Part shown: positions 19,077 through 23,831 of the stretch, one piece after another | How positions within the stretch are numbered: the stretch's first letter is position 1 | Layout: each line of letters begins with the position of its first letter | NCBI GenBank assembly: GCA_965218095.1 | Contig: OZ244587.1 | Coordinates: 2,080,001-2,144,000 of the forward strand | Length of the DNA stretch: 64,000 nucleotides | Source: Candidatus Poribacteria bacterium | GTDB taxonomy: Bacteria > Poribacteria > WGA-4E > PCPOR2b | Direction: 5' to 3' | Notes under the pieces: generated by a model | Told to the model about the DNA's origin: nothing | Databases searched by the model: none | The model's input: the letters and a program-made list of their open reading frames with translations, nothing else | Position numbers and translations under genes: made by a program

Positions 19077-20225
19077 TTGGCTAGAAACTTTGTATTCACA
19101 TCTGAATCCGTAACTGAAGGACACCCCGATAAACTTGCAGATCAGATCTCTGATGCTGTGCTTGATGCTATCATGGCGGAAGATCCAATGGGTCGCGTCG
19201 CTTGCGAAACGTTAGTGACAACGGGGCTTGCACTCATCACAGGTGAAGTCACGACCCACGCAAATTTCATCGATATTCCCGGGCTTGTACGTAACACTAT
19301 CCGACAGGTTGGCTACACCGATGCCTCCTATGGGTTTGACTATGAGCATTGCGCTCTGCTAACTGCAATCGATGAGCAATCCCCGGATATTGCGATGGGT
19401 GTTGATCGGCTTGGCGCCGGTGATCAAGGTATGATGTTCGGCTATGCCTGCCGCGAAACGCCGGAGCTGATGCCGATGCCGATTATGTTGGCGCATAAAC
19501 TGACGCACCGTCTCGCCCAATTGCGGAAAGAAGGGGTATTAGACTTCCTTCGCCCTGATGGCAAATCGCAGGTCACGGTTGAGTACGTCGATGGACAACC
19601 TGAGAATGTCACGACCGTTGTTATCTCGACCCAACACGACCCAGACGTTACCAATGAAGAACTGAGAGAAGCTGTGATCGAGGAGATTATCAAATTCGTG
19701 ATCCCTGATGAGTTGCGCCACCCGGATATCATATACCATGTCAACCCGACAGGACGATTTGTTGTTGGTGGGCCACAAGGAGACGCGGGTTTAACTGGCA
19801 GAAAGATCATCGCTGATACTTACGGTGGCATGGGCAGACACGGTGGCGGTGCATTCTCTGGCAAAGATCCGACGAAAGTGGATCGGAGCGCGGCGTATGC
19901 AGCAAGGCACGTTGCGAAAAACATCGTTGCTGCTGGTTTGGCGGATCGATGTGAAGTCCAACTCTCTTATGCCATCGGTCTCGCTAAACCGATCTCAATC
20001 ATGCTGGAGACTTTCGGTACAGGTGTGATCCTTGATGAAAAACTGGCGCAGCTTGTGGACAAGCTTTTCGATCTGGAACCAGCTAGGATTATCGAACGCC
20101 TTGAGCTCCGGAAGCCGATTTACTCAGCAACAGCGGCTTATGGGCATTTCGGACGTGAGGAGCCGGGTTTCACATGGGAATTGACAGATTATGCAGACTT
20201 GCTGAAATCAGAAGTCGGTGTGTAG
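19077..20225 (+). CDS. metK: S-adenosylmethionine synthetase
   Basis: [35 protein letters not shown]; TTG start after AGGAG. Confidence 0.97.
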
Positions 20226-20253
20226 CACGATACGCGCTAACAAAGGAGAATTG

Positions 20254-21516
20254 ATGAACCACGACATTAAAAACCGAGAGCTCGCAGAAGATGGAAAGCG
20301 GCGAATTGATTGGGCGGATCGCTTTATGCCTGTCCTCCGTCTGATTCGCCAGCGGTTTGAGCAGGAACGTCCACTCAATGGCGTGCGGCTGTCCGCGTGT
20401 TTGCATGTCACGACAGAAACGGCGAACCTGGTGCGTGCCTTGAAGGCAGGCGGTGCAGAAGTTGTTTTGTGTGCTTCCAATCCGTTGAGCACCCAGGACG
20501 ACGTTGCGGCGTCTCTTGTCATGCATGAGGGAATCCCCATTTTCGCAATCAAGGGCGAGGACACTGAAACCTACTACCAACATCTCGATGAAGCGGTCAA
20601 TTTTCAACCGATGATGACGATGGATGATGGGGCGGATCTGGTCTCTCGGCTCCACTCTGAAGAGGCGAACCCTGCCTTTGTCGAAAACGTGCTTGCAGGT
20701 ACGGAGGAGACAACAACGGGGGTTATCCGACTCAAGAGTATGGCAGCCGAAGGGGTGCTTCGGTATCCAATCATTGCCGTAAACGACGCCAAGACCAAGC
20801 ACTTCTTTGATAATCGCTACGGTACGGGTCAAAGTACGCTAGACGGTATCATTCGCGCGACCAATTTGTTGATCGCCGGGACGACTATCGCCGTCGCGGG
20901 CTACGGGTGGTGTGGACGCGGTTTTGCCAGTCGGGCGCGGGGGTTGGGGGCGAATGTCATTGTCACGGAAGTCGATCCGTTGAGCGCGTTGGAAGCAGTG
21001 ATGGACGGCTTCCGCGTCTTGCCGATGATTAAAGCTGTCGCCGAAGCCGATCTCGTCGTTACGCTGACGGGCGATATTCATGTGTTGCGCCGCGAGCACT
21101 TTGAAGCGATGAAGGATGGCGCGATTATTTGTAATTCGGGGCATTTCAATGTCGAAATTAACATCCCCGATCTCAAAGATTTAAGCACCGAGGTGAGAAC
21201 CACGCGAGAGTTTGTCGAGGAATATTCCCTCAAGGATGGGCGCAAGCTCTACCTGCTCGGCGAAGGAAGGCTGATAAATCTCGTTTCGGCGGAGGGGCAC
21301 CCCGCTAGTGTCATGGATATGAGTTTCGCTAATCAGGCGCTGTCTGCGGAGTACGTTGTTAAAAACCATCAACAGATGGAAAATCGTGTTTATGACGTGC
21401 CGGAAGAACTGGATGCCTCTATTGCAAAACTCAAATTGCAATCCATCGGCGTTGAAATTGATGAACTGACGGAAGAACAGCGGACTTATCTCAGTTCTTG
21501 GACGATGGGAACATAG
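20254..21516 (+). CDS. ahcY: Adenosylhomocysteinase
   Basis: [48 protein letters not shown]. Confidence 0.97.
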
Positions 21517-21537
21517 CGTAAAACGTAAGATGCCACC

Positions 21538-21726
21538 GTTTCAATCTTATAAGGGTTTGGTTCGGCGTTGCAACTTACCCAGGCCGTCAACTGTGATGTG
21601 AATTTTTGTACTGGTTTCAATCTTATAAGGGTTTGGTTCGGCGTTGCAACCCCGGCAGTTCTAATGACCGTGCGAACAAACTTGTTACCGTTTCAATCTT
21701 ATAAGGGTTTGGTTCGGCGTTGCAAC
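21538..21726. CRISPR. Mini CRISPR array: 3 identical 37-bp repeats, 2 spacers of 39 bp
   Basis: Repeat GTTTCAATCTTATAAGGGTTTGGTTCGGCGTTGCAAC at 21538-21574, 21614-21650, 21690-21726; spacers TTACCCAGGCCGTCAACTGTGATGTGAATTTTTGTACTG and CCCGGCAGTTCTAATGACCGTGCGAACAAACTTGTTACC; reverse complement ends ATTGAAAC. Confidence 0.92.
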
Positions 21727-21954
21727 CCCGGCGCCTCTGGGAGCCTTGACGTTGTTGGGGTTTTCAACTCTTTTTCTGTCAGCCCCTCCCCAATCGGGGA
21801 GGAGGACACGGTTTGGGGGGATAAGGTAAGTCGGTGACAACGCCGAAACCCTTATAGGTGTTGCAAAGCCGGGCTTTCCTGTCAGTCTGCGGGGTTTTTA
21901 TTAGCCCTAGGGTTGGCAGGATTAAATCCTTATAAGGTATCCCTTTAAGTGGTA
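21727..21954. promoter_or_regulatory. Leader-like/anti-repeat segment between array and omegaRNA
   Basis: CAACGCCGAAACCCTTATA (21838-21856) complementary to the repeat; CTGTCAG at 21776 and 21879 with inverted TGACA at 21835; CCTTATAAGG palindrome 21928-21937. Confidence 0.55.
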
Positions 21955-22216
21955 GATTCTAATTACACTCACACCTAGAAACAGCCTTAGCCCGTGAGTT
22001 GAAAGGAATCTGGGCTACGTTGGTATGATTAGCATACCCTGGGGTGCTCCACCAGCCCCAGGCACTATGGCGGCTCTTTAAGAAGGACTTGGGGAGGTTC
22101 GGTCAACCGCATTTCGCACTCACTTTGAGTGAAAGTCACACCAACATTGGCGGGGTGGATCATACCTATTACCCCCCTATCTCCCTCCCGCAAGCGGGGA
22201 GGGGGAAGGGAGGTAA
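21955..22216 (+). ncRNA. IscB omegaRNA (HEARO-like) scaffold
   Basis: CAGCCTTAG (21982), TAGCCC/GGGCTA stem, CTACGTT, CCTGGGG/CCCCAGG stem whose loop TCCACC (22048-22053) can pair with GGTGGA (22154-22159), GTTGGT/ACCAAC stem, AACATTGGCG, 3' GC hairpin ending at the iscB RBS; 5' end approximate. Confidence 0.85.
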
Positions 22217-22227
22217 TGGAGGTCAAT

Positions 22228-23769
22228 ATGTTTGTTCATGTTTTATCAAAATCAGGTCAGCCGTTGATGCCCACGCATCCGGCAAACGCACGTAAACTGC
22301 TTAGAGACGAAAAAGCCCAAGTTGCGAAAACTAAAACGGGCGTGTTTACGATTCAACTCAATTATGAATCTCTAACATATACGCAACCGATAACCGTTGG
22401 AATTGACACCGGCTCAAAATCTGTGCCGATCGCCGCAGAGGGCAACGGCAAAATTTACTACGCCAAGGAGAAACTATTACGGACGGATGTTAAGAATCGA
22501 CTTTCCGATCGGCGTCAACAGAGGAGAATCCGAAGACACCGTAAAACCCGGTATCGGAAACCTCGTTTTTTGAACCGCACCAAAACGAAATGCAGCCGTT
22601 GCGGTGTCAATAATGTGCCGTGTTTATGGACTCTCAAAAAGCGCGAAGAGGGGCAGACAAAGAAGTGGGTTAAGGGTCGGAGAAAATCTTTATGCAGACC
22701 TTGTAAAGGGCATAAAGGAGAGCATAAGCAACCGACTGTGTTAGCCCCTTCAATTAAGAACCGTGCGGAGAGTATTCTAAATGATGTAGAGAGACTGCGG
22801 AAAACCCTGCCCATCTCTAAGGTGGTCGTAGAAACGGCGTCATTCGATACTCAGAAGATGGCAGATCCGAAAATTAAAGGCGTCGAATACCAGCAGGGAA
22901 CCCTCGCCGGGTACGAGTTGAAAGAGTATCTGCTGATAGTGAACAAGCATACATGCGCCTATTGTGGTAAAAAGGATGTCCCCCTTGAAAGGGAACATAT
23001 TTTGCCCAAAGCCAAGGGAGGCAGCGATCGCATTGATAACGCGACGGTCGCTTGTGTGTCTTGCAATGCCGAAAAAGGCGCGAGGACATTAGATCAGTGG
23101 GAAGAGTCACTGCCAGAGGCGGACGCTCGTAGGCAGGGGATACAGCGGGTTCGGAAAAATGCGAATGTCAAAAAAGAATTCCAGTATTCGGCATTGACCC
23201 AATCCTATAAGAATTATTTGATGAAGTCATTGCGCGAACAGTTCCCTGTAATTGAGGAGACTTACGGTTACATGACGAAGTTCTACCGGATTCGACGGAA
23301 GCTTGACAAAACCCAGATAAACGATGCTATGGTGATTGCATCAGAAGGGGAGCCGTTCCAACTACCGGATCGATTTCTTATAGAGAAGCAGATCAAGAAA
23401 CGGCATCCATATCATTCTATCTCGGACCGACATGGTTATAAAATCGTCAAGTATAAGCGCGATCCTGAAAAATATGGTTTCCGCCTATGGGATCGAGTGA
23501 GTTTCAATCATAAGGAATTCGGAGAAGTGGTTGCTTATATCTCTGCGCTGAAAGAGGATGGCTATTTTGAAATGCGCGATATTGAAGGAGGGAAAATTAA
23601 GGGAAAGCGTCCGACCTGTTCACATAAAAAGTTAAAATTGATAGAACCCGCGAGAACAAACTACATAAGGGAATGGCGCGTAACGCGGACTTCGACGAGC
23701 TCAGACTTCGTCGATCCATTGTTAGCCGGTCCTGCCGAACAACTTCACCTGTTCTCGCTTATGTCATAG
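22228..23769 (+). CDS. iscB: IscB RNA-guided endonuclease (IS200/IS605 OMEGA; PLMP, RuvC, bridge helix, HNH), 513 aa
   Basis: PLMP motif, RuvC-I GIDTG (D60), RRxRR bridge helix, RuvC-II VVETASFD (E202), HNH CAYC..EREHILP..GGS..N..C..CN..KG (H257), RuvC-III KTQINDA; ATG 22228 after GGAGG. Confidence 0.93.
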   Translation: MFVHVLSKSGQPLMPTHPANARKLLRDEKAQVAKTKTGVFTIQLNYESLTYTQPITVGIDTGSKSVPIAAEGNGKIYYAKEKLLRTDVKNRLSDRRQQRRIRRHRKTRYRKPRFLNRTKTKCSRCGVNNVPCLWTLKKREEGQTKKWVKGRRKSLCRPCKGHKGEHKQPTVLAPSIKNRAESILNDVERLRKTLPISKVVVETASFDTQKMADPKIKGVEYQQGTLAGYELKEYLLIVNKHTCAYCGKKDVPLEREHILPKAKGGSDRIDNATVACVSCNAEKGARTLDQWEESLPEADARRQGIQRVRKNANVKKEFQYSALTQSYKNYLMKSLREQFPVIEETYGYMTKFYRIRRKLDKTQINDAMVIASEGEPFQLPDRFLIEKQIKKRHPYHSISDRHGYKIVKYKRDPEKYGFRLWDRVSFNHKEFGEVVAYISALKEDGYFEMRDIEGGKIKGKRPTCSHKKLKLIEPARTNYIREWRVTRTSTSSDFVDPLLAGPAEQLHLFSLMS

Positions 23770-23831
23770 AGGTATTGCTGGGAAATATTCACATTAAAAC
23801 TATCGGCTCTTAGAGTAAAGGGGCCTGACTT

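Follow-up and report, generated by a model that had tools for sequence, protein, structure and literature searches.

Organization of the locus

In the window (the whole stretch of 64,000 nt from a Candidatus Poribacteria genome that was analysed), the gene ahcY (20218-21516) is followed in 5' to 3' order by a CRISPR array, which begins 21 bases past the ahcY stop codon, by 501 nt of non-coding sequence and by an open reading frame (ORF) of 513 amino acids (22228-23769). The neighbours of this array/iscB unit are ahcY, a small ORF and pfkB. The features are given below with the evidence for each; A and B denote the distal and the proximal anti-repeat copy.

21513..23825, + strand: whole inserted module of mini-array, tracr-like omegaRNA and iscB (RNA-contig joins; ahcY-pfkB gap)
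21538..21726, + strand: CRISPR mini-array of three identical 37-nt repeats and two 39-nt spacers (direct reading; repeat search)
21538-21574, 21614-21650 and 21690-21726, + strand: the identical repeats
21575-21613 and 21651-21689, + strand: spacer 1 and spacer 2, 39 nt each
21575..21613, + strand: spacer 1 as a match to an IS5-family insertion sequence of the host (105 other genomic matches)
21833..21870, + strand: distal anti-repeat A, an inverted repeat copy with a 4-nt deletion (pairing; alignment; start of abundant RNA contigs)
21836..22221, strand not shown by the contigs: abundant RNA (contigs of depth 24-60)
21877..21921, + strand: stable hairpin between A and B (-23.9 kcal/mol, z -4.2, none of 200 shuffles as good)
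21897..22165, + strand: match to the HEARO / IscB omegaRNA scaffold (RF02033, E 1.3e-14)
21912..21938, + strand: proximal anti-repeat B (aligns to positions 1-31 of the reverse-complemented repeat)
21975..21982, + strand: CTA-GAAAC before AG, the 3' strand of the first scaffold stem (HEARO alignment; relatives)
22166..22219, + strand: G+C-rich terminal hairpin directly before the iscB ribosome-binding site (-39 kcal/mol, z -4.2)
22228..23769, + strand: iscB, 513 aa (Pfam RRXRR and HNH; solved IscB structures)

The repeat (GTTTCAATCTTATAAGGGTTTGGTTCGGCGTTGCAAC; starts at 21538, 21614 and 21690) was found neither elsewhere in the 6.35-Mb genome at up to three mismatches nor in 175 other genomes of the phylum. 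It contains two palindromes, CTTATAAG and GTTGCAAC, by which complementarity is inflated in both orientations. Since the ends of the repeat are near-palindromic, its likeness to the repeats of related loci gives an ambiguous orientation of the array; the orientation was taken instead from the pairing of the stem strand and from the strand of the anti-repeats. At 21760-21772, 70 nt from where the third repeat starts, GTTTTCAACTCTT shows a weak similarity to the repeat and may be what is left of a decayed fourth copy. With such a decayed repeat on the iscB side, the leader would lie on the ahcY side. A complementarity of 11 of 13 positions between the 3' end of spacer 2 (21674-21686) and the start-codon region of iscB (22225-22237) was judged to be probably due to chance, because 25 such inverted pairs occur in 900 nt. 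Two similar G+C-rich hairpins, one in the array trailer (21783-21806) and one at the end of the omegaRNA before the iscB ribosome-binding site (22183-22206), are 79% alike and 400 nt apart.

RNA contigs of one metatranscriptome run fuse position 21512 to 23826 or 23832 and omit 2313-2319 nt. The gap between ahcY and pfkB, which measures 2610 nt here, amounts to 310-566 nt in 10 of 12 relatives. From these contig joins and short gaps it follows that the array is part of an inserted 2.3-kb unit together with iscB, and not a pre-existing host array. Inside 21513-23825, neither a transposase nor a cas gene was found. A related strain present in the sponge RNA data lacks precisely the 2.3-kb insertion, with array, RNA gene and iscB missing together. 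The target of the insertion is the conserved neighbourhood of ahcY, the small ORF and pfkB.

The IscB protein and its scaffold RNA

The product of the ORF matches the Pfam families RRXRR (1.6e-51) and HNH_5 (2.5e-12). Among solved IscB structures, TbaIscB is the best match (6e-49), and OgeuIscB matches at 1e-28. The protein has the PLMP/RRXRR N-terminus, the split RuvC domain with an inserted HNH domain and the size (about 400-550 aa) of an IscB, and it has no REC lobe. The gene is single-copy in the 6.35-Mb genome, and its product keeps every column that is invariant across 47 family members.

The HEARO match scores 75.3 bits, below the gathering score of 83 bits, so that the RNA stays under the curated threshold for membership of this family; it is the only HEARO match in the whole genome. 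Alignment is poor (low posterior probabilities) in the 5' quarter of the model, which is the site of the split guide-adaptor element. The cis 5' stem strand that the Rfam model places at 21897-21904 is doubtful, because this position lies inside the stable hairpin at 21877-21921. An omegaRNA-type scaffold with an anti-repeat lies between the array and the ORF, and the array adjoins iscB in the same unit (the repeat is unique to the locus, and both are absent jointly from the related strain and from the syntenic site in relatives).

Two inverted copies of the repeat

A preliminary description of this DNA had reported that CAACGCCGAAACCCTTATA (21838-21856) is complementary to the repeat, and this proved correct: all 19 bases pair, as the reverse complement of TTCGGCGTTG plus TATAAGGGT (10 + 9), with four repeat bases left over between the paired segments as the described bulge on the repeat side. 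Among the inverted matches listed for A there are perfect stretches of 11 and 10 nt. The copy is longer than first noted, as 31 of the 37 repeat bases find partners in 21834-21870 (RNAduplex, -35.1 kcal/mol), and in a local alignment A spans positions 1-36 of the reverse-complemented repeat, apart from a single 4-nt deletion. In 3000 random 501-nt windows of the same genome the duplex energy averaged -25.1 kcal/mol (sd 2.6; 0.1st percentile -35.1 kcal/mol), and ten of them reached -34.4 kcal/mol or lower. By gapped blastn (+1/-1), A scores 13, and 68 other hits of at least 13 occur in 12.7 Mb (both strands). Both estimates put the chance of finding A at about 0.003 per 500 nt.

An alternative folding of the segment on itself (CAACGCC with GGTGTTG) had also been pointed out; it is present but weak, at -15.1 kcal/mol and z -1.7, and 6 of 200 shuffled sequences do at least as well. 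The further caution that the segment looks leader-like refers to motifs that are indeed there (CTGTCAG at 21776-21782 and 21879-21885; TGACA at 21835-21839), and no second array with the same repeat, in whose leader an identical segment might have occurred, was found in the genome or in the 175 other genomes of the phylum.

The second partial echo of the repeat (CCTTATAAGG, 21928-21937) was understated in the preliminary description, as it is part of a near-full-length inverted repeat copy at 21912-21938. Here, 21919-21938 forms 20 contiguous pairs with repeat bases 7-26 (15 Watson-Crick and five G-U), and GAAAC at 21978-21982 pairs with repeat bases 1-5 (GTTTC). Genome-wide, on both strands, ten registers have at least 20 contiguous pairs. 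Three of them have at least 25 and were presumed to be the antisense strand of the array itself and set aside; the six other registers that remain correspond to a chance of about 0.0002 per 500 nt. The 20-bp helix departs from a perfect complement at five positions, all of them C-to-T or A-to-G changes, which keep the pairing (as G-U) in RNA of the + strand only.

The starts of A and B are 79 nt apart, and the array has a period of 76 nt; on the basis of this offset, A and B together are probably an inverted repeat-spacer-repeat piece of the array. The segment 21893-21920 had been considered as a decayed direct repeat fused to the scaffold, and it was dropped, as it gave no blastn hit on the + strand. 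The best duplex energy with the repeat is -35.1 kcal/mol for A versus -27.5 kcal/mol for B. Cofolding with the repeat, which the preliminary description had proposed as a check, uses either A or B plus 21859-21875, depending on the 5' end that is supplied. Since the predicted optimum switches in this way, thermodynamics does not choose between A and B.

Related loci and their guide RNAs

The relatives of the IscB comprise one twin (99% identity) and then about 50 metagenomic proteins at 50-57% identity; besides the twin, no protein closer than 57% was found. A scan of genome contigs with the IscB protein gave no close relative for a covariation test of A, the 175 other genomes of the phylum held no close IscB at E 1e-60 or better, and the viral contigs yielded a single distant IscB hit, with neither the repeat nor spacer 2 matched. 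Altogether, 23 related loci were recovered, 18 of them with usable upstream sequence. In three of these 18 (L029, L030 and L036) an array lies upstream of iscB, 438-451 nt from the ATG.

The array-less loci carry a one-piece omegaRNA, which consists of GTCAACAT, two hairpins and ATGTTGAC. In the array loci, the first 6-7 bases of the repeat pair with the strand corresponding to ATGTTGAC (CGTTGAC, CGTTGA and GACTGA), and the partner of its last 13-20 bases is an anti-repeat standing in for the 3' strand of the first hairpin. This two-part pairing is located 192-202 nt before the ATG, with energies of -29.1, -44.5 and -41.4 kcal/mol in the three loci (RNAduplex). The equivalents of the stem strand are CTA-CGTTGAC-AG (L030, L036) and CTA-GACTGAC-AG (L029), in the same place as CTA-GAAAC-AG here. 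B matches the anti-repeat of all three loci in position, and through B the locus fits the plan of its relatives, namely anti-repeat, hairpin region and CTA-GAAAC-AG. A has no positional counterpart in the relatives, as it lies about 120 nt upstream of the stem strand and their anti-repeat 13-20 nt. Hence A is not the sole anti-repeat, and the one that docks to the scaffold is probably not A.

When four repeats were combined with six tracr regions in a cross-table, each region bound the repeat of its own locus best. A reaches -35.1 kcal/mol with its own repeat versus -11 to -18 kcal/mol with the others, and B -27.5 versus -9 to -12 kcal/mol. This is co-variation between whole loci, four in number, and does not single out A.

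In L030, partial extra anti-repeat pieces occur about 75 nt upstream of the main one. L029 (1240-1385), L030 (460-600) and L036 (480-620) have in common a long hairpin, GTCGTCGAC...GGTTGTGCAAAATCC...GATCGACGA, between array and anti-repeat. A second copy of its 3' strand directly precedes the anti-repeat, so that an alternative pairing is possible.

In a tree of 20 rows, from which L031, L037, L040 and L047 were excluded because of reading frames of less than 300 aa, the basal grade is made up of the window and the array loci, within which six array-less, transposon-like loci are nested as a tight clade (support 100/99; metagenome loci L027-L040). This pattern suggests either that arrays were gained several times or that a split guide RNA reverted to a one-piece form.

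RNA from the locus in sponge metatranscriptomes

The RNA data consist of assembled contigs from four sponge metatranscriptome runs of one study, which count as one observation. High-depth contigs (24-60) were present in all four runs (21843-22360, 21836-22155, 21840-22221 and 21851-22153). They start at 21836-21851, i.e. at segment A, and continue into the scaffold, with the reservation that the contigs show neither the strand nor true RNA ends. The contigs show that an abundant RNA spanning both anti-repeat copies and the scaffold occurs in nature, and their starts hint that it begins at A.

The array and its trailer are covered at a depth of 4-15. The trailer contigs (depth 3-8) are separate; their ends lie at 21849-21855 except in one of the four runs, where they stop at 21815, and no contig in the four runs bridges them to the contigs of the abundant RNA. 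The breakpoints of the contigs bracket the core duplex at 21838-21856, which is what protection by pairing would predict. The iscB gene is nearly silent, most of it being at an RNA depth of 0-3. A scan for sigma-70-type consensus promoters gave no site, so that a transcription start at about 21836 is unsupported by the sequence. Terminator-like sites occur nearby, and the RNA reads through them. The environmental strain or strains showed no variants at 21783-22273.

Spacer 1 and the CRISPR arrays of the host

Spacer 1 has 105 other sites in the host genome at up to four mismatches, including 18 perfect ones; for its last 16 nt alone there are 70 other perfect sites. The target is an element of the IS5 family of about 805 bp with DUF4096 and DDE_Tnp_1 ORFs. 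All matches fall in the DDE transposase ORF of this element (L050, 545-583), in its most conserved transposase segment, and the 3' flank of the protospacer is AATCCCCC or AAACCGCC. A crRNA of spacer 1 from the + strand would be antisense to the transposase mRNA.

Of the 173 spacers in the two large arrays of the host, not one matches the host's genome. Possible explanations for the self-matching spacer are that the TAM spares these sites, that the system does not cut, or that it has a role in the control of the insertion sequence. The large arrays (3424072-3432463 and 4784269-4788637) contain 115 and 60 repeats of 37 nt, and each adjoins a cas1-cas2 pair (at 3.42 and 4.78 Mb). The repeat of one of them begins with GTTTCAACCTT and shares the 5' sequence GTTTCAAyCTT with the repeat of the IscB array. 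The module may borrow the adaptation machinery of the host.

Interpretation of the anti-repeats

The preliminary description had proposed that a 5'-extended omegaRNA acts as a tracrRNA that loads crRNAs. The general idea fits the locus, and a tracr-like reading is supported by the IscB family and its scaffold, by the specificity for the own repeat, by the RNA contigs that start from A and by the published precedent; the flagged segment is, however, not the only anti-repeat. We lean, with moderate confidence, towards the explanation that A and B make up the first 105 nt or so of an abundant tracrRNA-like omegaRNA in a horizontally acquired, CRISPR-associated IscB module. The array would be transcribed on the + strand, and each crRNA, consisting of a spacer and then a repeat, would hybridise to the 5' domain of the RNA. 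As in the relatives, repeat bases 7-26 would be docked by B and bases 1-5 by GAAAC (21978-21982), and the resulting duplex would take the place of the guide-adaptor hairpin of an ordinary omegaRNA, so that the last 16 nt or so of the spacer would enter IscB as the guide. A would be a second, thermodynamically stronger site, which may capture the pre-crRNA or help to process it, hold the 3' part of the repeat, or mask B as long as no crRNA is present. Against this explanation it must be said that A and B compete for the same repeat bases; the missing positional counterpart of A, the palindromes of the repeat, the failure to find a promoter site and the HEARO score below the threshold also speak against it. 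Furthermore, the array has two spacers only, one of them with at least 70 perfect 16-nt sites in the host, and may be unused.

We consider it rather unlikely that only B with GAAAC is a working anti-repeat and that A is a leftover of an inverted duplication, carried in the 5' end of the RNA without a role of its own. The position and the two-part geometry of the relatives' anti-repeat are shared by B and not by A, and with the extra pieces in L030, remnants of inverted array fragments would be found in two of four array-bearing loci. However, A is the better complement (19 of 19 Watson-Crick pairs in the core; -35.1 versus -27.5 kcal/mol), which is unexpected for an unselected relic, and it is at A, not at B, that the contigs of the abundant RNA begin.

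It is improbable that the locus is decaying or its array unused, with an RNA that acts, if at all, as an ordinary omegaRNA whose fixed guide lies just upstream of the scaffold, and with inverted copies that are incidental. The small number of spacers, the near absence of iscB RNA from the metatranscriptomes and the cis 5' stem strand placed at 21897-21904 by the Rfam model would agree with such a state, as would the 105 matches of spacer 1 to a host insertion sequence, which an active nuclease should not tolerate. The would-be fixed guides (21877-21892 and 21881-21896), however, have no perfect match elsewhere in the genome, and at one mismatch one of them has a single hit. Moreover, pairing of B with its cis partner is poor next to that with the repeat, all three repeats are identical, the protein retains all invariant columns of its family, and 21783-22273 is free of variants in the environmental strain or strains.

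A more elaborate version of the preferred explanation, to which we likewise give little credence, is that one tracr-like RNA binds two consecutive repeats of the pre-crRNA, the upstream one with B and the next one with A, and in this way measures out and loads the crRNA without Cas6. The module would then be domesticated to police the 105-copy IS5-family element, or be tolerated alongside it, and would represent a chromosomal IscB-CRISPR for transposon control and not for phage defence.

Least probable of all is that the segment is a leader, trailer or regulatory element without repeat pairing, its complementarity being chance helped by the palindromes: the low-depth upstream contigs stop at 21849-21855 in three of four runs, a self-hairpin is possible and terminator-like sites are nearby, but the chances of about 0.003 for A and 0.0002 for B apply to the same 500 nt and to the right strand, the self-hairpin is no better than shuffles (z -1.7), and the RNA reads through the terminator-like sites.

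Comparison with known systems

CRISPR-associated IscBs, such as DelIscB, were reportedly already published by Altae-Tran in Science in 2021. Such proteins are regarded as snapshots of the path from a transposon nuclease, guided by a one-piece RNA, to Cas9 with crRNA and tracrRNA. The unit described here is a CRISPR-associated IscB and a new member of this published design, with some new details; its particulars are the host-like 37-nt repeat, the doubled anti-repeat, the chromosomal site in a sponge symbiont and the in-situ RNA evidence. It provides a natural, expressed example in a complete genome, in which the abundant scaffold RNA appears to start at the anti-repeat and the array is transcribed at a lower level. 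As the anti-repeat looks like an inverted piece of the array, the questions of its origin and processing are testable with one 2.3-kb construct. The spacer against a host insertion sequence raises the question of target choice in a symbiont crowded with such elements.

PMC12660989 provides a precedent, a CRISPR-associated IscB preceded by an ncRNA that comprises spacer, repeat and anti-repeat; according to this paper it is still unknown whether and how the natural ncRNA of DelIscB is split into two components. The locus resembles CasIscB/DelIscB, as described there, in an IscB-sized nuclease (513 aa) without a REC lobe, an upstream array oriented like the gene, a long intervening ncRNA in which an anti-repeat is fused to the omegaRNA scaffold, and the lack of adjoining cas1/cas2. 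It differs from them, by description, in the 37-nt repeat and the 39-nt spacers, which resemble the large arrays of the host. Further differences are the two near-full-length anti-repeats around a stable hairpin, the chromosomal site in a sponge symbiont and the spacer against a host insertion sequence (one of two).

The topology is that of type II systems, especially the compact II-D Cas9 of PMC9755519: where the repeat adjoins the spacer, it pairs with the part of the anti-repeat next to the scaffold, the duplex may contain a bulge, and an abundant trans RNA carries the anti-repeat at its 5' end. Unlike in these type II systems, the effector is an IscB and not Cas9, the omegaRNA scaffold measures about 300 nt, and the pairing in this clade is in two parts. 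A Cas9 with a REC lobe, usually with cas1/cas2 in the locus, defines type II; here, a 513-aa IscB without linked adaptation genes is found.

PMC9640706, on OgeuIscB, equates the guide-adaptor hairpin with the repeat:anti-repeat duplex of Cas9. In common with this canonical omegaRNA, the 3' two-thirds of the scaffold are homologous (HEARO and 11 array-less relatives), and the guide-adaptor element lies directly 3' of the guide. In contrast to the one-piece omegaRNA (GTCAACAT-hairpin-hairpin-ATGTTGAC), the 5' strand would be supplied here by the CRISPR repeat. The locus also differs from the transposon-borne OMEGA IscBs of IS200/IS605: there is one iscB and one HEARO match in 6.35 Mb, signs of IS200/IS605 mobility are missing from the genome, neither candidate fixed guide has a second perfect site, and the cis adaptor is degenerate.

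TbaIscB (PDB 9K30) is called the founding IscB of the Cas9 lineage in PMC13180657. It is the best structure match of the protein described here, over residues 2-372 only, and a Cys-rich insert after the bridge helix is common to both.
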